Shown one piece after another: positions 4,329 through 62,350 of a DNA stretch of 64,000 nucleotides. Position 1 is the stretch's first letter. Every line of letters begins with the position of its first letter. Source of the DNA: Calditrichota bacterium (GTDB lineage Bacteria; Electryoneota; Electryoneia; Electryoneales; Electryoneaceae); NCBI GenBank assembly GCA_018263585.1, contig JAANWZ010000130.1, forward strand, positions 14,062 through 78,061, in the 5' to 3' direction. The position numbers were made by a program, and so were the translations under genes. The notes under the pieces were generated by a model. It searched no databases and had not been told where the DNA came from. It was given only the letters and a program-made list of their open reading frames with translations.

Positions 4329-5381
4329 ATGAGCGAGATCGGCGCGTTTCTCCTCGAAAAGACAGTCGTCGGGTCGGTGATGTTCGGGGTCACACTCGGC
4401 GTGGTTGCGTACGCGACACTCGGCGAGCGCAAGCTGTCCGGGTTCTTCCAGGACCGTCACGGGCCGAACCGCGCCGGGCCGTGGGGCCTGTTCCAGCCGA
4501 TCGCGGACGGCGTCAAGTTCTTCACGAAAGAGGAGTTCATCCCGGACCGCGCGAACAAGGCGCTGTTTGTGATCGCGCCCACGTTCACATTCATGGCCGC
4601 CGGGTTCCTGATCGCGGTGATCCCGTTCGGCGATCGGATCGTGGTCAACGGGCGCGAGATCCTGCTCCAGATCGCGGATGTCAACATCGGCATCCTCTAC
4701 ATCCTCGCGATCAGTTCGCTCGGGGTTTACGGCGTGATCACCGGCGGCTGGGCGTCGAACAACAAGTATTCGCTGATGGGCGGGCTGCGCTCATCGAGCC
4801 AGATGATCTCCTACGAGATCGCGATGGGACTCGCGGTCGTCGCGCTGCTCATCGATCACGGCACCCTCTCGCTGCGACAGATCGTGCTCAACCAGACCGG
4901 GCCGATCTGGCAGTGGAGCGTGTTCACCCACCCGCTCGGGTTCATCATCTTCTACGTGTCCGCGTTCGCGGAGGCGGCGCGGATCCCGTTCGACCTGCCC
5001 GAGGCGGAAAACGAACTCGTCGGCGGCTACCACACCGAGTACTCGGCGATGAAGTTCGGCCTGTTTCAGTTCGGCGAGTACACGCACATGACGCTCGCGA
5101 GCGGGTTGATCGCGACGCTCTACTTCGGCGGCTGGTCGATCCCGTGGCTGACAGCGCCGGCGGAGCCGACGGTCTGGTGGGGACTGCTCACGTTCGCTGT
5201 GTTCTGGATCAAGACGTTCTTCTTCATGTTCGTGTTCATCTGGGTGCGCTGGACGCTGCCGCGGTTCCGCTACGACCAGCTGATGGGACTCGGCTGGAAG
5301 AAGCTGATCCCGCTCGCAGTGCTCAACATCTTGGCGATGGCGGCGATCCTGATCGCCACCGGCGGCGCGGGGATGGAATGA
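4329..5381 (+). CDS. nuoH: NADH-quinone oxidoreductase subunit H (membrane)
   Basis: 350 aa polytopic membrane protein with NuoH/ND1-like sequence. Starts 5 nt after nuoG. Confidence 0.9.
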   Translation: MSEIGAFLLEKTVVGSVMFGVTLGVVAYATLGERKLSGFFQDRHGPNRAGPWGLFQPIADGVKFFTKEEFIPDRANKALFVIAPTFTFMAAGFLIAVIPFGDRIVVNGREILLQIADVNIGILYILAISSLGVYGVITGGWASNNKYSLMGGLRSSSQMISYEIAMGLAVVALLIDHGTLSLRQIVLNQTGPIWQWSVFTHPLGFIIFYVSAFAEAARIPFDLPEAENELVGGYHTEYSAMKFGLFQFGEYTHMTLASGLIATLYFGGWSIPWLTAPAEPTVWWGLLTFAVFWIKTFFFMFVFIWVRWTLPRFRYDQLMGLGWKKLIPLAVLNILAMAAILIATGGAGME

Positions 5382-5660
5382 TTCGACCACGGATAAAACG
5401 GATGGAACGGATATATGGACCACAGAACACAGGGAATACACGGAACGATTGACTTTAATTGTCTCCTGGCAGATGTTGCTGTTCTCCCTGTTGATTTTAT
5501 CGGTTCGGATGGTTAGAGCTGAACTTCACTTTTAGATGCTCAATTAAGTAGTTGCAATTTGCAATACGTTCATCTTTTATCCGTGTTTTCCGTATCATCC
5601 GTGGTCAGAGAATTTGTTTTCAGTGTATTCCGTGGTAAGAGAGGCAGACCGAGGCAATAG
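5382..5660 (+). promoter_or_regulatory. AT-rich (~40% GC) island inside the nuo operon with terminal inverted repeats and an ACGGAT motif array; possible internal promoter or operator
   Basis: GACCACGGAT...ATCCGTGGTC inverted ends (5385-5414 vs 5579-5606). At least 8 ACGGA/TCCGT motifs in either orientation. GC content far below the flanks. Confidence 0.4.
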
Positions 5661-6173
5661 ATGGCGAACACCGAAGTAAAGAGCGACCCGTTCCGCAAGT
5701 ATGATCTCACGCTCGCGGAGCGTTTGTATATCCCGGCGATCATGAAGGGGATGGGGGTGACCCTGTCGCATTTCTTCCGCAAGCCGGTCACCGTCCAGTA
5801 CCCGGAGCAGAAGCCGGAGATCAGCCACCGCTGGCGCGGGCGGCACGTGCTCAAGCGTGACGAGTTCGGCCGTGAACGCTGCGTCGGCTGCCAGATGTGC
5901 GAGCTCGCGTGCCCGGCGGATGCGATCACGATCCAGGCGGGCGAGGTGCCACCGGAGCGACGCCATCTGCACACGACCGAACGCTACGCGGTCACTTATG
6001 AAATAGACATGCTGCGCTGCATCTATTGCGGAATGTGCGAGGAGGCGTGCCCGGAGGCGGCAATCTTCCTCACACCGTTCTACGAGTTCGCCGAAGACAG
6101 CCGCGAGAAGCTGATTTACTCGAAAGAGATGCTGACCGAGAAGGTCGGCGGGCCGATATTCTACAAGGACTGA
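5661..6173 (+). CDS. nuoI: NADH-quinone oxidoreductase subunit I (2x 4Fe-4S ferredoxin)
   Basis: Two CxxCxxCxxxCP motifs (CVGCQMCELACP, CIYCGMCEEACP). GAGG RBS upstream. Confidence 0.9.
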   Translation: MANTEVKSDPFRKYDLTLAERLYIPAIMKGMGVTLSHFFRKPVTVQYPEQKPEISHRWRGRHVLKRDEFGRERCVGCQMCELACPADAITIQAGEVPPERRHLHTTERYAVTYEIDMLRCIYCGMCEEACPEAAIFLTPFYEFAEDSREKLIYSKEMLTEKVGGPIFYKD

Positions 6174-6182
6174 ACGCGCCGC

Positions 6183-6200
6183 GTGTCATCCTGAACAAGC
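6183..6200. repeat. Solo terminus of a MITE-like element (GTGTCATCCTGAACAAGC)
   Basis: 18-bp match to the left end of variant copy E. Lies in the nuoI-nuoJ spacer. Confidence 0.5.
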
Positions 6201-6228
6201 CGGCGATAGCGCACAACCTGAGACGGTT

Positions 6229-6747
6229 ATGGACTCACAGACAATCGTGTTCGCGATCCTCGCGCTGATCTCGCTGTTCGGCGGGATCATGGTCGTGACG
6301 CGACGCAACCCGGTGCACAGCATCCTGTTCCTCGTGCTCACGTTCTTCTGTTTCGCGGGGTTCTATGTGATGCTCGGTGCGACCTTCCTCGCCGCGATCC
6401 AGGTGCTCGTCTATGCCGGCGCGATCATGGTCCTGTTCCTGTTTGTCGTGATGATGCTCAACCTGCGCGAGCCGGAGGCGCTGGAAGGCGGCCCGTCGTT
6501 CTTCCAGACGCTCGGGTTCATCGTCGCGGCGGGGATGGCGGTGCTGCTGCTCGCGTACTTCGCCGGGCGGCCGGGACCGGGCGTGCCGCCGTTTTCCGCG
6601 GGCGAGACGGCCTACGAGGTCGGCGGCCCGGAGAGCCTGGGCATGCTGCTGTTCACCGAGTACGTGTTCCCGGTCGAGATCGCGGGCATTCTCCTGCTCG
6701 CCGCGGTGATCGGCGCGGTCGCGCTGGCGAAACGGAAACGGGTGTGA
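6229..6747 (+). CDS. nuoJ: NADH-quinone oxidoreductase subunit J
   Basis: 172 aa hydrophobic protein in nuoI-nuoK position. Confidence 0.85.
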   Translation: MDSQTIVFAILALISLFGGIMVVTRRNPVHSILFLVLTFFCFAGFYVMLGATFLAAIQVLVYAGAIMVLFLFVVMMLNLREPEALEGGPSFFQTLGFIVAAGMAVLLLAYFAGRPGPGVPPFSAGETAYEVGGPESLGMLLFTEYVFPVEIAGILLLAAVIGAVALAKRKRV

Positions 6748-7061
6748 TCATGGAAACGACCGTCGGCCTCAACCATTACCTGATCCTTGCTGCGCTGTTG
6801 TTCTGCATCGGAATCGCCGGCGTGCTCACGCGCCGCAACCTGCTGATCATCTTCATGTCCGTCGAGCTGATGCTCAACTCGGCGAACCTGACCCTGATCG
6901 CGTTCAGCCACTACCTGGTGAACGCGGTCGGGATGGTATTCGTCTTTTTCACGATGACTGTCGCGGCGGCGGAGGTCGGTGTCGGGCTCGCGATCGTGGT
7001 TACGATCTTCCGCAACATCGAGTCGCTCGACATCCGGAAGCTGAACGTGCTCAAGCACTGA
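6744..7061 (+). CDS. nuoK: NADH-quinone oxidoreductase subunit K
   Basis: ~100 aa three-helix membrane protein (LNHYLILAALLFCIG...). GTGA overlap with the nuoJ stop. An alternative ATG start lies at 6750. Confidence 0.85.
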   Translation: MIMETTVGLNHYLILAALLFCIGIAGVLTRRNLLIIFMSVELMLNSANLTLIAFSHYLVNAVGMVFVFFTMTVAAAEVGVGLAIVVTIFRNIESLDIRKLNVLKH

Positions 7062-7065
7062 TCCG

Positions 7066-7107
7066 GCTGGCGGCTGGCGGCCGGCGGCTGGCGACCGACG
7101 GCTGACG
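7066..7107. repeat. Degenerate heptamer tandem repeat (GCTGGCG)n, about 6 units
   Basis: gctggcg gctggcg gccggcg gctggcg accgacg gctgacg, between nuoK and nuoL. Confidence 0.7.
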
Positions 7108-7132
7108 ACTGAATCAGGACAGGGAGGAACCG

Positions 7133-9133
<2,001 letters not shown>

Positions 9134-9167
9134 TGCCGGTTCATATCCAGTATGCGCGTTCCACTGT

Positions 9168-9309
9168 GTCATTCTGACGCCCGAAGGGCGGAAGAAGGTC
9201 CGAGTACGAAACCGGTGGTTACTGTCTGGATCACCCTTGCTGGAACTGGACCTTCCCTTCACTGCGTTCAGGATGAACTTCACGCCGCTGAGGCGGCGTT
9301 CAGAATGAC
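9168..9309. repeat. MITE/REP-like composite palindromic element, copy A
   Basis: Termini GTCATTCTGAC...GTTCAGAATGAC. Internal GAAGAAGGTCC / GGACCTTCCCTTCACTGCGTTCAGGA inverted pair. Confidence 0.8.
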
Positions 9310-9375
9310 GAAACGCCAACTGGATCGGAACTGGCAACAGTGGACCGGATCACATGAAACGACAGGTGACCGACC

Positions 9376-9529
9376 GTCATCCTGAAGCCGCGGGCGGCGT
9401 CAGTCTGCCCCACGCGACTGAAGGAGGTCCGAGTACGACGTCGGAGAGGCATGCATTTACAACCGTTTGTCTACCTGGACCTTCTTCACTACGCCCGATA
9501 AACTGAAATCGGGCTGCGTTCAGAATGAC
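9376..9529. repeat. MITE/REP-like element, copy B (tandem with A)
   Basis: GTCATCCTGAAGCC...GCGTTCAGAATGAC. Internal AAGGAGGTCC / GGACCTTCTTCACT. Confidence 0.8.
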
Positions 9530-9582
9530 GCAGAATCAGCTCTCGTTCCATGTGGTTTGTTCCGTTCATCAGGGAGACCACA

Positions 9583-11061
9583 ATGTCCTGGTGGTTAACC
9601 GCCATCGTGTTCATCCCGACCATCGGCGTGCTCGTGCTCCTGTTCGCGCCGCCGGCGCGGGAGAAGTTCATCCGCTGGTGGTCGTTCGCGGTGATGACGG
9701 TCGGCTTTCTTGTCTCGCTGCCGTTGTTCTGGTTGTTCGACGCGAGCACGGCGGCGTTTCAATTCATCGACAAGGCGCCGTGGATCCGTTCGCTCGGGAT
9801 CGACTACCACCTCGGCGTGGACGGGATCAGCCTGCTGCTCGTGCTGCTCACAACCTTCCTCGGCCCGATCGTCGTGCTCGGCAGCGGCAGCGTGACCAGG
9901 CACCTCAAGGGATACTTCATCAGCCTGCTCATCCTGCAGACCGGGATGCTCGGCGCGTTTGTCGCGCTCGACCTGTTCCTCTTCTACGTATTCTGGGAAG
10001 TGATGCTGATCCCGATGTACTTCATCATCGGGATCTGGGGCGGAGTCGCGCGCATCTACGCCGCGGTCAAGTTCTTCATCTACACGATGATCGGCTCATT
10101 GTTGATGCTGATCGGGATTCTCTGGATCTACTTCAACACGACCGTGCCGGGGATCGGCCACACGTTCGACTACACGCTGCTGGTGCAGCACGCGAACTTC
10201 CCGGTACAGGCGCAGATGTGGCTGTTCGCCGCGTTCGCGCTCGCGTTCGCGATCAAGGTGCCGATGTTCCCGTTCCATACGTGGCTCCCGGACGCGCACG
10301 TCGAGGCGCCGACCGCTGGCTCGGTGATCCTCGCCGGCGTGCTGCTGAAACTCGGCACGTACGGGTTCATCCGGTTCGCGATGCCGCTGTTCCCCGATGC
10401 GGTCGTCAGCTTCCGCCCGCTGATGCTCGCGCTCGCGGTGATCGGGATCATCTACGGCGCGATCGTCTCGATCGCGCAGAAGGACATGAAGAAACTGGTC
10501 GCGTACAGCTCGGTGAGCCACCTCGGGTTCGTGATGCTCGGGCTGTTCGCGCTCAACACGCAAGCGGTGTCCGGCGCGCTGATCCAGATGGTCAACCACG
10601 GGCTCTCGACCGGCGCCTTGTTCCTGCTCGTCGGCGTCGTCTACGACCGGCGGCACACGCGCCTGATCGCCGATTACGGCGGCATCGCCCGGTTCATGCC
10701 GTGGTATGCGGTCGTGTTCACAGCGGTCGCGTTATCGAGCATCGGCCTGCCCGGGCTGAACGGGTTCATCGGCGAATTCCTCGTGCTCGTCGGGACCTAC
10801 CAGGCGCACCCGGTGTGGGCGATCTTCGCCGCGACCGGCGTGATCCTCGCCGCGATCTACCTGCTCTGGATGATCCGGCGCGTCTTCTTCGGCGAGTTGA
10901 CGCACGATGAGAACAAGTCGCTGACCGACCTGAACGCGCGCGAGTGGGCGTCGCTGCTGCCGCTGCTCGTGTTCATCGTCTGGATCGGCGTGCATCCGAA
11001 CACGTTCCTGTCCAAGTTCACCGTCTCGATCCAGCATTTCCTGGCGCAGACGGTTCAGTAG
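9583..11061 (+). CDS. nuoM: NADH-quinone oxidoreductase subunit M (antiporter-like)
   Basis: ND4-family sequence. Start chosen at MSWWLTAIVF with an AGGGAG RBS 6 nt upstream. The ORF track's 9550 start runs into a repeat element. Confidence 0.85.
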   Translation: MSWWLTAIVFIPTIGVLVLLFAPPAREKFIRWWSFAVMTVGFLVSLPLFWLFDASTAAFQFIDKAPWIRSLGIDYHLGVDGISLLLVLLTTFLGPIVVLGSGSVTRHLKGYFISLLILQTGMLGAFVALDLFLFYVFWEVMLIPMYFIIGIWGGVARIYAAVKFFIYTMIGSLLMLIGILWIYFNTTVPGIGHTFDYTLLVQHANFPVQAQMWLFAAFALAFAIKVPMFPFHTWLPDAHVEAPTAGSVILAGVLLKLGTYGFIRFAMPLFPDAVVSFRPLMLALAVIGIIYGAIVSIAQKDMKKLVAYSSVSHLGFVMLGLFALNTQAVSGALIQMVNHGLSTGALFLLVGVVYDRRHTRLIADYGGIARFMPWYAVVFTAVALSSIGLPGLNGFIGEFLVLVGTYQAHPVWAIFAATGVILAAIYLLWMIRRVFFGELTHDENKSLTDLNAREWASLLPLLVFIVWIGVHPNTFLSKFTVSIQHFLAQTVQ

Positions 11062-11095
11062 TGGTTCGATTCGACTACTATGGGCGTAATTGATC

Positions 11096-11248
11096 GTCAT
11101 TCTGAAGCCGTGGCCGGTGTCCGTATACCGCCAACGGCTGAAGAAGGTCCAGATGCTGTACAGGTCAGCTATTCATAGAGACCGTCGGCGAACCGGGACC
11201 TTCTTCACTTCGTCCAGCAAACTAACGCTGGTCTTCGTTCAGAATGAC
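11096..11248. repeat. MITE/REP-like element, copy C
   Basis: GTCATTCTGAAGCC...CGTTCAGAATGAC. GAAGAAGGTCCA / GGACCTTCTTCACT. Confidence 0.8.
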
Positions 11249-11305
11249 GAATCATCTCCCGCCAGACCGTGTGGATTCGCCCATTAGGCCCTGAGGAGCC
11301 GACTC

Positions 11306-12778
11306 ATGTTCGACAGTCTGATCGCTGATATGCATGTGAGCCGCCTGATCCCGGAGATATTCGTGATCGGGCTCGCGCTCGTCGCCATCCTCGTCGATGT
11401 GGTCCTCCCGCGCGGCCGGAGCACTCGCGGCGTGCAGATCACCGTGCTGATCGGCCTGTTCGCCGTGATCGCCGCCACCGTGCTCGGCAAGGAAAACACC
11501 GGCGAAGCGTTCGGCGGGATGGTGGTCGTGGACGGGTTCACCTTCTTCTTCCGGCTCCTGCTTGCGATCATCACGTTCCTCGTCGTGCTCGTGAGTGAAC
11601 ATTACATCGAGCGGCTCAACATCCGGATCGCGGAATACTACCTGCTGTTGCTGTTCAGCCTGTTCGGGATGCTGCTGATGGCGATGGCGCAGGATCTGCT
11701 CATCGTGTTTCTCGGGATCGAGACGATGTCTGTGTCGCTGTACGCGCTCGTCGGACTCTCGCGGCAGAAGCACACGTCGAACGAGGGCGCGATCAAGTAC
11801 TTCCTGCTCGGCGCGTTCACGACCGCGATTTTCGTCTATGGGATCGCACTCATGTTCGGCGTCGTCGGCTCGACGAACATCAACGACATCGTGACCTTCC
11901 TCAGCGGACTCGGCGACTCGATGCCGCTGCTCGCGTGGGCGGGCGCCGGGTTGATCCTGATCGGGTTCGGGTTCAAAGCGGCGCTTGTCCCGTTCCACTG
12001 GTGGAGCCCGGACGCGTACGAGGGCGCGCCGACCACGATCACCGCGTTCATGTCCACCGCGCCGAAAGCCGCAGCGTTCGCCGCGTTTCTCCGTGTCTTC
12101 TACATCGCGTTCGGCGAGATGTGGGGTGAGTGGACGGTCGTGCTCTGGTGGATCGCGGTGCTCACGATGACGTTCGGCAACCTGCTCGCGCTCCGCCAGG
12201 ACAGCGTGAAACGAATGCTTGCGTTCTCGAGCATCACGCACGCCGGTTATCTCGTGATCGCGCTGCTCACGTTCGACCGGATCGGGGCGGCGGCGATGCT
12301 CTTCTACCTCGTCGTCTATGCGCTGATGAACCTCGGTGCGTTCCTCATCGCGATCGCGGTCAACCGTGACGAAAGCGAGGAGAAGGGCTACTGGTTCGAC
12401 GACTACAAGGGGCTGGTGTTCCGCAAACCCGCGCTCGCGCTCGCGATGCTCGTGTTCATGCTCGCGCTCGCGGGGATTCCGCCGACCGCCGGCTTCTTCG
12501 GGAAATACTACATATTCGCCTCGGCCGTGAACGCCGGCTTCGTCGGGCTCGCGGTGATCGGCGTGCTCAACAGCGCGGTGAGCGTGTACTACTACCTGCG
12601 GCTCGTCGTTTACATGTTCCTCCGCGACCGCGAGGCGCGCGAGCGCGAGGGGCCGCTTTGGATCACGGACGAGATCACGAACGTCGTCTTCCTCTGCCTC
12701 GTGCTCGTCCTGCTCGTCGGCCTGTTCCCGGACGCGCTGCTCACGTTCGCGACGAACTCGGTGAAGATGCTGCTCTGA
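11306..12778 (+). CDS. nuoN: NADH-quinone oxidoreductase subunit N (antiporter-like)
   Basis: 490 aa ND2-family membrane protein. GAGGAG RBS. Confidence 0.88.
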   Translation: MFDSLIADMHVSRLIPEIFVIGLALVAILVDVVLPRGRSTRGVQITVLIGLFAVIAATVLGKENTGEAFGGMVVVDGFTFFFRLLLAIITFLVVLVSEHYIERLNIRIAEYYLLLLFSLFGMLLMAMAQDLLIVFLGIETMSVSLYALVGLSRQKHTSNEGAIKYFLLGAFTTAIFVYGIALMFGVVGSTNINDIVTFLSGLGDSMPLLAWAGAGLILIGFGFKAALVPFHWWSPDAYEGAPTTITAFMSTAPKAAAFAAFLRVFYIAFGEMWGEWTVVLWWIAVLTMTFGNLLALRQDSVKRMLAFSSITHAGYLVIALLTFDRIGAAAMLFYLVVYALMNLGAFLIAIAVNRDESEEKGYWFDDYKGLVFRKPALALAMLVFMLALAGIPPTAGFFGKYYIFASAVNAGFVGLAVIGVLNSAVSVYYYLRLVVYMFLRDREAREREGPLWITDEITNVVFLCLVLVLLVGLFPDALLTFATNSVKMLL

Positions 12779-12920
12779 GTGAATGCCCGCGGGGACGGGC
12801 GCCGGCCCGTCACCGCGGTTGATCCAACGGTGCTGAACTGCGCCGGTGTCGAACCGCGGTTGCGTCCCCCTTCTCGCTCCGGCTTCCGCGAGACGGGAGC
12901 GCCCGAGGTCCTCCTGCCTG

Positions 12921-13223
12921 TTACGCCAGCTTCTGCTTCACCGATTCGACTTTCCGCTCCATCGACTGCGCTGCGTCGCGGCGGTCATCGATCTTGATCA
13001 CAGTGCTGATCCGCGGCGCGCCCGCTTCGACGAGCGCCACGTGCATCTTCTTCGCCACGTCGAACAGGTCGTCGATCTCCCCTTCGACGGTGGTGAACAT
13101 CGGGCCGAGCTCGTACTTGACACGCTTGTCCCGGCGCAGCACATCGACCGCTTTCGCGACATGTTCGCTCAGGCTCGTGTTGTCCCTGCCGGAAGCAGCG
13201 ACGCTGATCGCGAGGATCGCCAT
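12921..13223 (-). CDS. MTH1187/YkoF-family (DUF77) small protein
   Basis: 100 aa (MAILAISVAASGRDNTSLSEHVAKAVDVL...TVEGEIDDLFDVAKKMH) matches the thiamine-binding YkoF/MTH1187 fold family. Convergent with nuoN. Confidence 0.6.
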   Translation of the reverse strand: MAILAISVAASGRDNTSLSEHVAKAVDVLRRDKRVKYELGPMFTTVEGEIDDLFDVAKKMHVALVEAGAPRISTVIKIDDRRDAAQSMERKVESVKQKLA

Positions 13224-13458
13224 GTGAATGCCTCCGTCTGTTCGCCGACGCTCGCTCCTACTCGAAAGTGAGAGTGTCCCCGGGCGGCTCGCAACGCCCG
13301 GCGCGCGCACTCCGTCGAACCGGGAGGAAACAAGCCGGGCGTTGGCGCGTCCAACAACGGGCACAGGCGCGGGAGACTCGACCGACCGCCGGCTTGCGTC
13401 GAAACGGCCCGGGCCGTAGCTTCACATTCTCGTGCAACAGAGAACCAGGGACAGAGCG

Positions 13459-13674
13459 ATGAAGAAGGACATCCATCCGGACTATCATTACGTGCAGGTG
13501 ACGTGCGCCTGCGGCGAGCAGTGGCATACACGGAGCACGCAGCCGGGGGAGATCAAGGTCGAGATCTGCTCCAACTGCCACCCGTTCTTCACGGGCAAAC
13601 AGAAACTCGTTGACACGGCCGGCCGTGTTGACAAATTCTACCGGAAGTACGGGATAAAGGCGCAGGAAGGATGA
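13459..13674 (+). CDS. rpmE: 50S ribosomal protein L31
   Basis: [10 protein letters not shown]...[13 protein letters not shown] is the canonical L31 sequence, with the Zn-ribbon CxxC..CxxC. Confidence 0.92.
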
Positions 13675-15269: not shown

Positions 15270-15458
15270 GCGGCGCCCGTTCTCGCCGGCGGCTCATGCT
15301 CTCGCCTCGACTACCCGAGCGGCGAGAATTCGGCGTTCCGAACTCCGTGAAACCCGAGCACTTTCGACGTATATTTATCGCTTGCGAGCATCCGGTTGTG
15401 CCGTTCGCTCAGCCACTTGCATGGGCCGGAACTTTGATCGCATCCGGACGGCCGAGCC

Positions 15459-15626
15459 GTCATTCTGAAGCCGGCTTCACGCGTCTGTCTGCGTGAAGGC
15501 GGGTGGAGAAGGTCCACGTTATCCAAGGGTCATTTCACGAGTTTCATGGTATCCTCCACCCTTGTCGAAGCTGGACCTTCTTCCCTTCGCCCGACAAACG
15601 GACGTCGGGCTTCGGTCAGAATGACG
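15459..15626. repeat. MITE/REP-like element, copy D
   Basis: GTCATTCTGAAGCC...GGTCAGAATGAC. Reverse complement of copy F. Confidence 0.8.
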
Positions 15627-15720
15627 CCCTTTCCACCCGCTATTTTGCTCCCGGCTGAGCCAAAGGGATGACCGGATGCGAGCAGGCGTCGAAGCGAGTG
15701 CAGCGTGTACGGAAGGGACG

Positions 15721-35197: not shown

Positions 35198-35355
35198 TCG
35201 CCCGTACGCGGGACCGGCTCGTGTTCAGACGCCGCCCCGGTGCGGCAGGGTGGCCCGGGGCTCCCCGCGGGTTTCATGCACGCATGGATAAGCCGCGCGG
35301 GCAAGGTGCGCACCGCACCCGGGCCGCACGGGCGACACTGATGTGATTGGCGGAG

Positions 35356-35381
35356 GGGGACGCTTGCTGGCAAGCGTCCCC
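35356..35381. repeat. 26-bp perfect palindrome GGGGACGCTTGC-TG-GCAAGCGTCCCC
   Basis: Seen directly. In the non-coding region downstream of the putative anti-sigma gene. Confidence 0.85.
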
Positions 35382-35527
35382 GGTGTCGGGGCCTGGTGGC
35401 CCGCGAGCTTGCCGCGGGACAGGAGTCTGAGCTACATTCCACACCTGCAGATCCACCCGTCCCCGGGTGGATCGCTTATCTTGAACGGTTCGCAATTACA
35501 GGGCCGGTTGCGCATTCGGCGCAGGGT

Positions 35528-35680
35528 GTCATCCTGAACAAGCGCGGCGTCCGTTTGCCGCGCGCTGTGAAGGATCTACGCGGTGCACCACCAGGATGTC
35601 ATTTGACACGCACCCGCGCGGTTCTTGCTGGCAGATCCTTCACCCCCGCACAATAGAGACGTGCGGGGGTTCAGGATGAC
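35528..35680. repeat. MITE/REP-like element, variant copy E
   Basis: GTCATCCTGAACAAGC...GTTCAGGATGAC termini. Divergent interior carrying the GAAGGATC / GATCCTTC pair. Confidence 0.7.
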
Positions 35681-35780
35681 ACTGAGGCGGCGCTAAAACG
35701 GACCGGTGGCTGGGGTCCAAGATGACTCGACCTTGCATTTGCGCGGAAGCCTATTCAAAGAGAAACGCAGGAGTTTTCAG

Positions 35781-39034: not shown

Positions 39035-39171
39035 GATGGTTTCCCCGGGCGGCGTCCCGGTGCTGTGTCGTCGCGCCGGGCGAGGACGACTCACTTCCCT
39101 CGTGCGTGCACTTGCGAGCATTCGGTTATCCCTTTGGCTCAGCCGGGAGCAATATCGCGGGTGGCAAGGGT

Positions 39172-39363
39172 GTCATTCTGACCGAAGCCCGACGTCTTTT
39201 TGTCGGGCGAAGGGAAGAAGGTGCAGGTCTGACACGGGTGGAGGATACCATGAAACTCGTGAAATAACCCTTGGATAAGCTGGACCTTCTTTATCCGCGT
39301 TCACGCAAACAGACGCGTGAGGAGGGGACGCTTGCTGGCAAGCGTCCCCACAGCCAGAATGAC
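39172..39363. repeat. MITE/REP-like element, copy F (inverse orientation of D; carries a nested 26-bp palindrome)
   Basis: About 85% identical to the reverse complement of D. GGGGACGCTTGCTGGCAAGCGTCCCC is inserted near one end. Confidence 0.8.
39324..39349. repeat. 26-bp perfect palindrome GGGGACGCTTGC-TG-GCAAGCGTCCCC (nested in element F)
   Basis: Seen directly. Confidence 0.85.
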
Positions 39364-39473
39364 GCCTCTGCCACCCGGGTGTGCTTCAGAGTCCGGTCCA
39401 TGCACGTGGCTGAGCGAACGGTATAACCCGTTGCCGGCAGGCGTCCCTTTTTCGAGGAAGACTCAATCCACCG

Positions 39474-40637
39474 ATGGCGATAAAGACGACAGAAAAGCGG
39501 GTCGGCGTGCTGATGAGCGGCGGGGTGGACAGCTCCGTCGCGGCGGCGCTGCTGAAGCGGAAGGGATATCACGTTGTCGGCGTCACGCTCCAGCTCTGGG
39601 ATTATGAAACCAACGGACGGCGTCCCCCGGGCGAGCGCGGCTGCTGCGACATCTCGCACCAGATGGACGCCCGCTTCGTCTGCCACCATCTCGGCGTCGA
39701 ACACGTCGTCCTCGACCTGCGTGACGCCTTCCGCCGCGCGGTGGTCGGGCCCTACGAAAACGCCTACCTTTCCGGGAGAACGCCGAATCCGTGCATCGCC
39801 TGTAACACGCACATCAAGTGGGCGGAGGTGATCAGGCGCGCGCCGGTGTTCGGGCTCGATTTCATCGCGACCGGCCACTACGCGCGCGTGGTTCGCGGCC
39901 GGGACGGCGTCCGGCTCGAGAAGGGCGTCGATCGCGCGAAGGACCAGAGCTACGCGCTGTGGCAGATCCCGCGGCACGTGCTCGCGCGCACGATCTTCCC
40001 GCTCGGCACGTGGACGAAGCGTTCGATACGGGAAGAGGCGCGTCAGCTCGGCCTGCGCACGGCCGACAAGCCCGAGAGCCAGGAGGTCTGCTTCATCGAC
40101 GGCCGCTACGACGAGCACCTGCGCGAGGAGTACGCGGACCGGGTTTCGCGGATCGGCGCGGGCGAGATCGTGGACACCGCGGGGCGCACGCTCGGCGGGC
40201 ACAGCGGCTTTTTCTCGTTTACGATCGGCCAGCGGAAAGGGCTCGACATTTCCGACGGCCGGGGCCCGTATTACGTGACCGAGCTCGACGCGGCGCGTAA
40301 CCGGGTCGTCGTCGGCGACCGCCGTTCGCTCGCGCGCACAGGCCTCGTCGCGGTCGAGCCGAACTGGGTGTCGTTCGACCCGCCGGAGCGGCCGGAGCGG
40401 TGCGCGGTGAAGGTGCGCTACAATGACCCGGCCGGCGCGCCCGCGACCGTGCATCCGCCTGAAGATGGACGCGTGCTGATTCGGTTCGACAACCCGGTCG
40501 ATGCGGTCACCCCCGGCCAGTCCGCGGTCTGGTATCGCGGAAACGCCGTCTGGGGCGGCGGAATCATCAGCCGCGCGTTGAAGGACGGTGACGCGGCGGC
40601 AGACAGTCACAGGATGAACCTCGAGGCAGACTGGTGA
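39474..40637 (+). CDS. mnmA: tRNA-specific 2-thiouridylase
   Basis: PP-loop SGGVDSSVAA. Catalytic Cys motifs. Full-length MnmA. Confidence 0.88.
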   Translation: MAIKTTEKRVGVLMSGGVDSSVAAALLKRKGYHVVGVTLQLWDYETNGRRPPGERGCCDISHQMDARFVCHHLGVEHVVLDLRDAFRRAVVGPYENAYLSGRTPNPCIACNTHIKWAEVIRRAPVFGLDFIATGHYARVVRGRDGVRLEKGVDRAKDQSYALWQIPRHVLARTIFPLGTWTKRSIREEARQLGLRTADKPESQEVCFIDGRYDEHLREEYADRVSRIGAGEIVDTAGRTLGGHSGFFSFTIGQRKGLDISDGRGPYYVTELDAARNRVVVGDRRSLARTGLVAVEPNWVSFDPPERPERCAVKVRYNDPAGAPATVHPPEDGRVLIRFDNPVDAVTPGQSAVWYRGNAVWGGGIISRALKDGDAAADSHRMNLEADW

Positions 40638-40788
40638 AAAAGGCGTGATCGTCCGTCATGCTGAACGAAGTGAAGCAGGTCCAGGTTCGCAAAGGGTCGG
40701 TCTCATAAGCCAACCTGTTGATAACTCGGATCTTTCCTTCACTGCGTTCAGGACATGCTTCCGCCGCCTGCGGCGGCGTCAGAATGAC
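40638..40788. repeat. MITE/REP-like element, copy G
   Basis: GGCGTGATC..GTCATGCTGAACGAAGTGAAGCAGGTCCAGGTT...GGATCTTTCCTTCACTGCGTTCAGGACATG...GTCAGAATGAC. Confidence 0.85.
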
Positions 40789-40856
40789 ATGCCACCGGCG
40801 GTCGGCGGTTCATCAAGCTGGAAATACTTCATCAACAGTCTCGATGGGGAGCGCTG

Positions 40857-43308: not shown

Positions 43309-43908
43309 ATGAGACGACTTGGAACTGCAATTGTGCTGGCGGTGCTGCTCTCCGTCGCGACGTTCGACGGCGCGTACGGCCAGTCTCCCTACCGTGATAC
43401 GAAACCGCCGACGACCACCGAAACCCTGCGCCAGCCCGTGATCGATGACGGTGGTCAGGGGTTCTCCGGCCTGCTCGATCTGTCGCGCCTCTCGATGGAC
43501 CACCAGTTCGGAATGGGCTACATGAGCAGCGGCGGGCGCGGGTACACGCAGGGCTACTATCTGAACACGCTCACCTACCGGTTCAACGCGCCGGTGCTGC
43601 TGCGTCTGCGCACGGGAGTGACGAACAACCCGTTCGCGCAGAGCGGCTCGATGACCCGGCCCGGGCAGTCCGCGATGAGCGCGTTTTTCAACAACGCCGA
43701 GTTCTTCGGCGGCGCCGACCTGCTCTGGAAACCGAGCGAGAACACGCGGCTGATGATTTCGGTCGAGCGCACGCCGCCGGGTATGTTCGGCGGCGGGAGG
43801 TACGTGAACCCGTACGGCTCGCCGGGCTTCTGGAATCGGGGCGGCTTCGGAGCCTATCACCCGGCGTACGGCTTCGACGACCCGGGCTTCGACCCGCACC
43901 GGAATTAG
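43309..43908 (+). CDS. Secreted Gly-rich hypothetical protein
   Basis: GGAGGA RBS. Signal peptide. Good GC3. No family recognised. Confidence 0.45.
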   Translation: MRRLGTAIVLAVLLSVATFDGAYGQSPYRDTKPPTTTETLRQPVIDDGGQGFSGLLDLSRLSMDHQFGMGYMSSGGRGYTQGYYLNTLTYRFNAPVLLRLRTGVTNNPFAQSGSMTRPGQSAMSAFFNNAEFFGGADLLWKPSENTRLMISVERTPPGMFGGGRYVNPYGSPGFWNRGGFGAYHPAYGFDDPGFDPHRN

Positions 43909-43943
43909 CGGACCGAATCACATGAAACGAGGTTTGATATTGC

Positions 43944-44120
43944 GTCATTCTGAACGCAGCCCGATGTCAGTTTATCGGGCGCAGTGAAGTTTATCCTGAA
44001 CGAAGTGAAGGGAAGGTCCAGGTAGATAAACTGTTGTAAATGCATATATTACCGATGTCATACTCGGACCTTTCCTTCACTGCCTTCAGGACATGCTTCA
44101 GCCGCGTGCGGCAAACTGAC
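43944..44120. repeat. MITE/REP-like element, modular copy H
   Basis: GTCATTCTGAACGCAGCCCGAT..ATCGGGCGCAGTGAAG module, then the CTGAACGAAGTGAAGGGAAGGTCCAGGT...GGACCTTTCCTTCACTGCCTTCAGGACATG module. Confidence 0.75.
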
Positions 44121-44239
44121 GCCGGCCGCGGCTTCAGGGTGACCGTGAGTCACCCGTTGTTCCATGTGATCCGGTCCACGAGCGGCGTGTGAGGACCGGC
44201 GGTTCGATCTGACGAGATGAGGGGGAGGTCCGGAACAGC

Positions 44240-62020: not shown

Positions 62021-62085
62021 ATCCCGGCGGATTCGACCGGCGGCTTGCCGCGGGCGACGCCGCGGATGCACATTCCGAGGACTGC

Positions 62086-62239
62086 TGGAAAAGGCGTGAT
62101 CCTTCGTCATGCTGAACGAAGTGAAGCAGGTCCAGGTTTGAAGACGGTCGTACATATGACTCAACCTGTTGATAACTCGGACCTTTCCTTCACTGCGTTC
62201 AGGACATGGTTCCGCCGCCTGCGGCGGCGTCAGAATGAC
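62086..62239. repeat. MITE/REP-like element, copy I (about 90% identical to G)
   Basis: Collinear with G apart from a diverged central ~30 bp. Confidence 0.85.
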
Positions 62240-62350
62240 ACGTCACCGACGGTGGGCGGTTTTTCGATCCTGGAGTACTTTTTCGACAGTCTCTTCTCGT
62301 AGCAGTGCGGGGGGACCGAGGCCGTCCGACAATCCGAAAAGGGAGGTACG

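Follow-up and report, generated by a model that had tools for sequence, protein, structure and literature searches.

The nuo operon for respiratory Complex I raises the question of what occupies the two long spacers that flank nuoM in the stretch of DNA that we analysed (64 kb; hereafter, the window). Four nucleotides separate nuoG from nuoH, and nuoJ overlaps nuoK by 4 nt; nuoL (7133-9133), nuoM (9583-11061), and nuoN (11306-12778), all on the + strand, are separated by 449 and 244 nt, respectively. A first-pass annotation put these spacers at ≈450 and ≈245 bp, in agreement with the gene map, and assigned two repeat elements to the nuoL-nuoM spacer, one to the nuoM-nuoN spacer, and a solo end to the nuoI-nuoJ spacer. 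All of these were found when the window was searched by nhmmer, regular expressions, and repeat finding.

Elements within the nuo operon

The nuoL-nuoM spacer consists of elements A and B plus a 13-nt ribosome-binding-site stretch, and essentially nothing else. The full unit of element A (≈9134-9338, + strand; core 9168-9309) has the outer inverted repeat TGCCGGTTCATATCCAGT / ACTGGATCGGAACTGGCA, a short hairpin in its left arm (GCCCGAAGGGC), and a duplicated terminal unit in its right arm. Element B (full unit 9340-9569, + strand; core 9376-9529) stops 13 nt short of the nuoM start and leaves the ribosome-binding site AGGGAGA free. That start is backed by an exact 492-aa database protein, and both termini of NuoM are intact when set against relatives; NuoL ends in VYF*, which is one residue shorter than the VYVR* and LYLR* of relatives. 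In the nuoM-nuoN spacer, element C (full unit ≈11080-11285, + strand; core 11096-11248) has the outer inverted repeat ATGGGCG / CGCCCAT. Subtraction of element C leaves 38 nt of this spacer, and the 20 nt on its 3' side (11286-11305), which contain the ribosome-binding site GAGGAG, match the whole 18-nt nuoM-nuoN spacer of relatives. The solo end between nuoI and nuoJ (6183-6200, + strand; GTGTCATCCTGAACAAGC) matches copy E, which lies outside the operon, at 18 of 18 positions of its left end (35526-35543). Short ORFs of 62-77 aa that overlap the two nuo spacers were judged spurious.

The source genome bears the NCBI label Calditrichaeota, and its nearest named relative is Candidatus Electryonea. 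Syntenic relatives, whose NuoM is 79-82% identical, do not have the element (four relatives, and five syntenic loci at 81-82% NuoM identity), and their nuoM-nuoN spacers are 12-18 nt long compared to 244 nt here, which implies that the insertions are lineage-specific. Likewise, the element was not found in 80 nuo loci from other species, and the median nuoM-nuoN spacer is 12 nt in 73 loci. At the level of sequence comparison, the copies of the element are thus shown to be insertions into, or expansions within, intergenic spacers after the split from element-free relatives. This result bears out the first-pass annotation, which had proposed insertion and had named spacers of equal length and unrelated sequence in relatives as the contrary finding; the short spacers of the relatives are of another kind. 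We infer the timing and mode of insertion from a comparison in which even the nearest relatives differ by 18% in NuoM. A search of other assemblies for empty sites at strain level recovered none: each contig that encodes NuoL, NuoM, or the downstream proteins in exact form contains an element or breaks in one, and NuoE gave no match.

A family of nested palindromes in the window

The window contains nine copies and one stub (≈1 copy per 7 kb; ≈3% of the window), all intergenic and in both orientations, with six copies outside the nuo operon. Copy D (full unit 15379-15684, + strand; core 15459-15625) occupies a 406-nt spacer, flanked by a DinB-family gene and a rubrerythrin-family gene, that measures 141-232 nt in relatives. 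Copy F (full unit 39113-39443, − strand; core 39172-39363) is the reverse complement of D at 87% identity and carries an additional 26-nt palindrome at 39324-39349. Copy G (full unit 40629-40848, − strand; core 40655-40788), between mnmA and panB, has a left arm of the short form that lacks a hairpin (GTCATGCTGAACGAAGTGAAGCAGGTCC), and copy I (full unit 62080-62299, − strand; core 62106-62239), downstream of lpxA, is 85% identical to G. Copy H (full unit 43904-44179, − strand; core 43944-44143) is the reverse complement of B, to which it is ≈85% identical over matched segments that include 36-39 nt beyond the GTCAT termini, and has a symmetric additional 23-nt layer in both arms. Copy E is represented by its core only (35528-35680, + strand), with the central stem GTGAAGGATCT. 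The 85-87% identity of the sister pairs B/H, D/F, and G/I implies that whole units were duplicated.

Cores are 134-200 nt long, and full units reach ≈205-331 nt once the outer inverted-repeat layers are counted. The core ends are terminal inverted repeats of 12-28 nt (GTCATYCTGAAC-GnAG-TGAAG-rAGGTCC), paired as GTCATYCTGAAC / GTTCAGRATGAC and reaching 28 nt in the short form, and the central stem of the core is GAAGAAGGTCC/GGACCTTCTTC. In most cases a hairpin of 22-32 nt, whose 8-nt loop is GTCNGTTT, fills a slot just inside each terminus; the centre is variable. The stems of these subterminal hairpins covary at 7 of 7 pairs, their loop is near-invariant, and hairpins with this loop are confined to the elements. 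In the REP literature, a conserved GTAG or GTGG head adjoins the palindrome; the elements do not have this head as a feature, and the tetranucleotide beside the hairpin is G(A/C)AG instead of the GTAG/GTGG of REPINs. The flanks of the hairpins read GAAG, GCAG, or CTGAAG, and GTAG occurs only once, in the right arm of B. Most copies have further inverted-repeat layers outside the core, the outer repeats differ between subfamilies, and both folding and the pairwise homology of B/H, D/F, and G/I indicate that the repeated units run past the GTCAT termini. The idea that the outer layers are older copies of the same terminus gained no support at ≤2 mismatches.

The two-motif pattern of the family has 7 matches, compared to 0.00 expected in shuffles, and the 12-nt terminus with ≤2 mismatches has 29 matches, compared to 7.4 ± 2.6. 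The first-pass annotation had reasoned that transcription would turn the spacers into large structured RNA segments, and the predicted folds of the nuoL-nuoM and nuoM-nuoN spacers are indeed very stable (z = -8.5 and -6.1, respectively). Fold energies are much alike on both strands; in 6 of 9 copies the sense strand folds more stably, with a mean difference of ≈2 kcal/mol, an asymmetry that is uninformative as a sign of RNA-level selection.

Likeness to known repeats

No Rfam family matched anywhere in the window, and the region 5300-11400 gave chance-level matches only. Element B (9340-9569) had no blastn match (word size 11) among 5,426 complete E. coli genomes, viral contigs and plasmids likewise yielded no match to the element, and literature searches by sequence string returned primer coincidences only. 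Hence the comparison with ERIC and REP elements made in the first-pass annotation holds as an analogy of kind and fails as one of sequence.

Like REPINs, the elements are symmetric, with two conserved inverted ends that each contain a small palindrome and a variable spacer between them; they can adopt alternative long-hairpin and 'clover' folds with compensatory changes; and they are strictly extragenic, multicopy, clustered as adjacent units, and without coding capacity (PMC3116915). The two inverted palindromic units and their spacer form a hairpin, and the ends are more conserved than the rest. Unlike REPINs, the elements are 2-3 times longer (205-330 nt) and have additional outer layers, and their sequence is not similar to that of E. 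coli REPs. As in MITEs, the elements are short (<500 bp) and non-coding, have terminal inverted repeats in the range of ≈4-30 bp, and occur as dispersed copies that are missing at the orthologous sites of relatives (definition and features in PMC10969869). Target-site duplications, which flank MITEs at least in young copies, were looked for with offsets allowed, and direct repeats of ≥3 nt did not recur consistently at core or full-unit boundaries. The conserved motif is internal and the outermost termini vary by subfamily, an arrangement that is atypical for a simple MITE.

Particular families offer closer likenesses. The ERIC/IRU elements of enterobacteria are also imperfect palindromes (at least ≈127 nt) in transcribed intergenic operon regions, have size variants that arise from internal insertions, and can alter mRNA decay; however, they belong to a different phylum and share no sequence similarity with the elements, which have subterminal hairpins and nested layers. 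Correia elements of Neisseria (NEMIS/CREE) are MITEs of 100-155 nt with ≈26-nt terminal inverted repeats that are co-transcribed with neighbouring genes as hairpins and cleaved by RNase III; their sequences are unrelated, and their TA target duplication was not found here. [quoted passage not shown] Conserved terminal inverted and direct repeats mark Chunjie, whereas here the conserved motif lies inside the full unit, and direct repeats are absent.

A metagenome scan with the two-motif pattern revealed related short palindromes of 70-125 nt (GTCATCCTGAGCGcAGCGAAGGAcCTC ... GAGGTCCTTCGC..GCTCAGGATGAC) that have a 25-28-nt terminal motif in common with the window elements. Among the matches listed, nhmmer recognised no true copy of the window family in at least 120 stretches. 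Two metagenome contigs (L152 and L159) read GAACG(A/C)AGTGAAGGA, as in copies G, I, and E, and the central stem of copy E is the nearest match to these palindromes. Like the window elements, the palindromes are interspersed among housekeeping genes and occasionally have an extra hairpin in the same slot. By contrast, they are simple single hairpins, without GTCNGTTT hairpins or outer layers, on contigs of unassigned taxonomy. No name for them was found in Rfam or the searchable literature; in Rfam, only generic miRNA-hairpin models matched, far below threshold. Pfam searches of 80 ORFs beside the palindromes detected housekeeping genes only and no transposase family.

Origin of the nuo copies and alternative readings

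Taken with the comparison of relatives, these likenesses lead us to conclude that the spacers probably hold lineage-specific, non-coding, nested-palindromic interspersed repeats that belong, as selfish and non-autonomous mobile DNA, to the MITE/REPIN kind. The repeat family is new, and this kind of small selfish DNA is well known. The copying enzyme would be encoded at another genomic site and may be an IS transposase; a RAYT-like single-strand DNA enzyme is considered as an alternative because the hairpin loops are sequence-specific and the plan is that of an inverted doublet. MITEs depend on the transposase of a related autonomous IS with matching termini, and REPINs flank a RAYT gene, which is Y1 transposase-like. 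No transposase family was detected among the ORFs of the 64-kb window, no RAYT gene was seen within it, and a search for distant inverted termini 0.4-4 kb apart revealed no autonomous partner at any of the loci examined.

A sigma-70 scan of 5300-13500, limited to promoters of the sigma-70-like type, found none; terminator-like sites showed no excess (7 compared to 5.8 ± 2.7 in shuffles); and no U-tract follows the element hairpins of the nuo copies. These results are compatible with read-through transcription as judged from sequence. RNA polymerase would then read through the nuo copies, and the transcripts would fold into closed, branched hairpins of ≈200 nt. Each element would be self-closing between the upstream stop codon and an intact downstream ribosome-binding site, so the flanks would stay close and translation of nuoM and nuoN could still start, which would explain how an essential operon tolerates three copies. 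The analogy with ERIC, REP, and Correia elements makes effects on nuoM and nuoN dosage or on RNA processing, as suggested in the first-pass annotation, plausible; any influence on the half-life or cleavage of the mRNA would be incidental. One candidate for a direct effect, masking of the nuoN Shine-Dalgarno sequence, was rejected: pairing with the 12 nt after the nuoM stop had a probability of 0.46-0.98 in the isolated spacer and ≈0 with coding flanks.

A different reading is that the nuo copies are domesticated cis-acting RNA modules, whose hairpins stabilise 3' ends or are processed by RNase III/E and in this way set different amounts of the antiporter-like subunits NuoL, NuoM, and NuoN. The very stable predicted RNA structures, the orientation of B and C with the operon, the absence of terminator or promoter signals, and the RNase III/E and related effects documented for Correia, ERIC, and REP elements (PMC10969869) are consistent with this function. 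Nevertheless, we consider it unlikely. The family also occupies unrelated housekeeping spacers, and its occurrence in both orientations relative to flanking genes, together with the similar fold energies of the two strands, makes it less likely that the family exists for the sake of a strand-specific RNA function. Moreover, the same operon of relatives works without elements, and the predicted helix over the nuoN ribosome-binding site vanishes with coding flanks. A broader and still more tentative proposal, to which we give somewhat less credence, is that the elements are over-grown members of a widespread, unnamed hairpin-repeat superfamily with the terminus GTCATYCTGA(A/G)CGnAG(C/T)GAAGGAyC. 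Their copying would depend on a single-strand DNA enzyme, resident in the host as a single copy, that recognises the hairpin with loop GTCNGTTT, in a REPIN/RAYT-like symbiosis outside Proteobacteria, and in this lineage they would be co-opted as self-closing RNA insulators or processing sites in essential operons such as nuo.

It is improbable that the elements are not mobile and act instead at the DNA level as binding sites for host proteins, in nucleoid organisation or for gyrase or IHF-like proteins, as proposed for BIMEs. The near-invariant loop and the conserved 12-nt terminus do resemble protein-recognition motifs, and the arrangement is symmetric and orientation-independent, but these motifs could equally be transposase recognition sites. 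In addition, relatives with the same gene order all lack elements, and the diverged, truncated, and nested copies and the stub fit proliferation and decay. More improbable again is a split of the operon by terminators or promoters in the elements that would make nuoM and nuoN separate transcription units. The distance for translational coupling is lost (449 and 244 nt compared to 18 nt between nuoM and nuoN in the closest relatives), and element C contains one weak terminator-like hairpin, but the promoter and terminator scans and the hairpins without U-tracts count against such a split. Finally, there is scarcely any chance that the spacers are assembly artefacts produced in the MAG by the collapse or chimeric joining of repeats: short-read contigs break inside A, B, and I, with all nuoL contigs stopping at 9160 and with reproducible breaks in B and I, as repeats are expected to cause, but the nuoM-element C-nuoN junction is identical in four independent assemblies, and independent Logan assemblies of several runs also recover the junction between the right half of B and nuoM and that between the right end of I and the gene downstream of it.

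Our understanding of Complex I and of bacterial repeats in general is unchanged. A dense repeat family is now documented in an uncultured lineage that has received very little study, where the repeats break up short-read assemblies of the source organism and can seed spurious ORF calls. An essential, usually compact respiratory operon of 14 genes can absorb three large palindromes, provided that each falls after a stop codon and ahead of the ribosome-binding site that follows. The conserved loop of the hairpins and the shared terminal motif of the palindromes on unrelated metagenome contigs provide a concrete handle for finding the enzyme that moves the family.

Gene map and anatomy of the repeat copies

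The window has a G+C content of 65% and begins with a complete + strand nuo gene run that includes nuoH (4329-5381), nuoI (5661-6173), nuoJ (6229-6747), nuoK (6744-7061), nuoL (7133-9133), nuoM (9583-11061), and nuoN (11306-12778). The nuoM start was fixed by an exact match to a 492-aa database protein, NADH-quinone oxidoreductase subunit M [Calditrichaeota bacterium]. The spacers between nuoL and nuoM and between nuoM and nuoN therefore measure 449 and 244 nt, respectively, in agreement with the sizes claimed in the first-pass annotation. Its placing of the repeats was likewise borne out by repeat finding, nhmmer, and motif scans, which located nine copies (A to I) of the palindromic GTCAT family. 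Copies A (core between the GTCAT termini, 9168-9309; full unit, ~9134-9338) and B (9376-9529; 9340-9569) occupy the nuoL-nuoM spacer, and C (11096-11248; ~11080-11285) the nuoM-nuoN spacer. The solo end in the nuoI-nuoJ spacer is an 18-nt stretch (6183-6200) identical to the left end of E. The other six copies, D (15459-15625; 15379-15684), E (core 35528-35680), F (39172-39363; 39113-39443), G (40655-40788; 40629-40848), H (43944-44143; 43904-44179), and I (62106-62239; 62080-62299), are all intergenic and flanked by housekeeping genes, including DinB-family/rubrerythrin-family, class-V aminotransferase/mnmA, and mnmA/panB pairs and a site downstream of lpxA. The repeat pattern is far above chance, with 7 matches to a two-motif pattern compared to 0.00 in shuffles, and 29 terminus matches compared to 7.4 ± 2.6.

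From the outside inward, an arm begins with the terminus GTCATYCTGAAC; next comes a slot, in most cases occupied by a hairpin, then (G/C)TGAAG and the central-stem arm rAGGTCC, followed by a variable center. In G and I, the left arm has a short form lacking the hairpin (GTCATGCTGAACGAAGTGAAGCAGGTCC). The hairpin in the slots of B, C, D, F, and H is of one of two types: one has direct GAAG or GCAG on either side, and the other direct CTGAAG. An 8-nt loop, GTCNGTTT, is nearly invariant across the eleven slot hairpins, and 7 of the 7 stem pairs adjoining it have changed on both sides. Stem pairing is 89.6% compared to 64% when shuffled and 29-44% with partners slid, where sequences rather than independent events were counted and sisters entered twice. 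Hairpins with this loop are confined to the elements (5 strict matches compared to 0.01 expected).

A tandem second terminal unit is present in the right arms of A, G, and I and in both arms of H, and H carries an extra symmetric layer of 23 nt on both arms compared to its sister B. Identity within the closest pairs (B/H, D/F, and G/I) is 85-87% over 214-330 nt, and this homology extends 30-90 nt past the GTCAT termini; the flanking sequence that it covers is itself an inverted repeat and differs from pair to pair. Therefore, the true units are ~205-330 nt. The observation made in the first-pass annotation is confirmed, with refined coordinates.

Comparison with relatives and independent assemblies

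The best match among species-representative genomes was Candidatus Electryonea clarkiae, whose NuoM is 79% identical and whose nuoL-nuoM and nuoM-nuoN spacers are 22 and 12 nt. Three more lineages (NuoM 81-82% identical; ≈20 kb of synteny with the window; 50-58% G+C) contain no element copies, and the element was found in 0 of 80 nuo loci compared. The nuoH-I, I-J, K-L, L-M, and M-N spacers are 279, 55, 71, 449, and 244 nt in the window, compared to 153, 90, 268, 224, and 18 nt in relative locus L205; 113, 81, 118, 107, and 18 nt in L206; and 106, 2, 176, 155, and 18 nt in L207. By rough estimate, median nuoL-M and nuoM-N spacers over 73 nuo loci are 35 and 12 nt. Relatives thus differ in spacer length, rather than carrying unrelated sequence of identical length, and this comparison of sequences shows that the nuo-spacer elements are insertions, as the first-pass annotation had proposed, and are specific to this lineage. 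In this clade, the nuoL-nuoM junction was already loose, and the nuoM-nuoN junction was tight. Without C, the nuoM-nuoN spacer is 38 nt, and its 3' 20 nt align with the relatives' 18-nt spacer, which contains the ribosome-binding site; without D, its spacer is ~100 nt compared to 141-232 nt in relatives. The termini of the NuoL, NuoM, and NuoN proteins are intact, apart from a one-residue shortening of NuoL.

A chimeric artefact as the source of the elements is very unlikely. The nuoM-C-nuoN sequence is the same in Logan assemblies of four separate runs. All four contigs begin at 9477, within B, three others begin at 62219, within I, and every nuoL-carrying contig ends at 9159, 26 nt beyond the stop codon; such reproducible breaks within elements are expected of high-copy or polymorphic repeats.

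Several features of the nuo spacers were observed besides. The relatives' nuoL-nuoM spacers share a conserved leader (L205 9977-10000; L206 9969-10000; L207 9963-10000) in which tandem CCCATAGCC units directly precede the nuoM ribosome-binding site (TTTGAGGGAGACCGCA); this leader is gone in the window, where the end of B stands instead. The nuoK-nuoL spacer holds a short tandem array (7065-7110) of a 7-nt unit, GGCTGGC/GGCCGGC. Independent assemblies begin within it, and one has a single-base difference (GGCGCCCGAC compared to GGCGACCGAC), which shows micro-diversity in the source population. The 279-nt nuoH-nuoI spacer (5382-5660) is AT-rich (~40% G+C compared to 65% for the genome), unique in the window, and folds as a single long hairpin edged by inverted CGGAT x3/ATCCG x3 arrays with 9-nt spacing. 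The corresponding 476-nt spacer of Ca. Electryonea clarkiae (L001 1676-2151) contains a GxxExxY-family pseudogene (TIGR04256, E = 1.5e-42) with an internal stop, flanked by inverted AGGAT x4 arrays. The window has no detectable remnant of GxxExxY, and the L205-L207 spacers (106-153 nt) have no arrays. This spacer may represent a second, unrelated type of mobile insertion or an operon hot spot.

Other palindromes in the window and in metagenomes

A 26-nt palindrome (GGGGACGCTTGC..GCAAGCGTCCCC) occurs alone in the spacer of E (35356-35381) and within F (39324-39349), is missing from F's sister D, and looks like a separate tiny unit able to land in other repeats. The 508-nt spacer around E (35198-35705) is nearly all self-complementary (predicted -282 kcal/mol) and holds other palindromes, rich in G+C, that have no relation to the GTCAT family, such as GATCCACCCGTCCCCGGGTGGATC (~35450-35473); therefore, the genome seems to carry several palindrome families.

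Among the matches listed by a pattern scan of metagenomes, none was a true copy of the family in the window. Of the 120 contigs listed, 25 carry complete 70-125-nt palindromes, which are laid out as GTCATCCTGAGCGcAGCGAAGGAcCTC-loop-GAGGTCCTTCGC..GCTCAGGATGAC, some with an additional hairpin in the corresponding slot, and lie between ordinary housekeeping genes, sometimes two per contig (L132 123-199 and 2218-2295; L161 4738-4817 and 9434-9511). Contigs L152 and L159 in this set read GTCATCCTGAACG(A/C)AGTGAAGGA, in agreement with the window's short-form terminus at positions left free by the search pattern. No transposase family was among the 25 families most frequently matched near these palindromes, Rfam gave no match, and none of the papers searched prints their sequence. 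The elements of the window look like relatives of this simple palindrome that have been enlarged and given several layers.

Nature of the family and its place in the nuo operon

We conclude that the repeat is multi-copy, non-coding, strictly intergenic, orientation-independent, palindromic, and absent from relatives, and that the family evolves by duplicating whole units, by gaining or losing layers symmetrically, and by decaying to stubs. No Rfam family reached threshold in the window, its ORFs matched no transposase family, and no similar sequences occurred in 72,556 plasmids, 5,426 E. coli genomes, or viral contigs. A scan limited to sigma-70-type promoters found none, and terminator-like sites were not commoner than in shuffles. 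The elements are probably non-autonomous mobile DNA whose copying enzyme would be encoded elsewhere. Their plan matches that of REPINs, with two conserved inverted ends that each bear a hairpin, a variable center, and compensatory changes (PMC3116915), and a loop with a specific sequence on stems whose sequence can vary suggests that what is recognized is single-stranded DNA in folded form. They otherwise fit the usual description of a MITE (PMC10969869), except that no consistent target duplication occurs at core or full-unit boundaries. The elements belong to a known kind but constitute a new family, which is unusual in its nested layers, its conserved hairpin loop, its lack of target duplication, and the position of its conserved motif inside the full unit.

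Whole element spacers are predicted to fold as closed, branched hairpins (nuoL-nuoM, -196.9 kcal/mol, z = -8.5; nuoM-nuoN, -103.7 kcal/mol, z = -6.1), about equally on either strand, which supports, at the level of predicted folds, the claim of large structured segments. A predicted helix that would mask the nuoN ribosome-binding site until the ribosome terminates at nuoM was context-dependent and was dropped. The nuo-operon elements would most simply be passengers. Each lies downstream of a stop codon and upstream of a ribosome-binding site that is still intact (AGGGAGA for nuoM; GAGGAG for nuoN) and would keep its flanks together, because each is predicted to close on itself. Chunjie provides a precedent for a MITE inside an operon, as do Correia and ERIC elements for effects that involve RNase III or RNase E (PMC10969869); by analogy with these precedents, the regulatory idea of the first-pass annotation is reasonable, and the elements may affect nuo mRNA processing or dosage.
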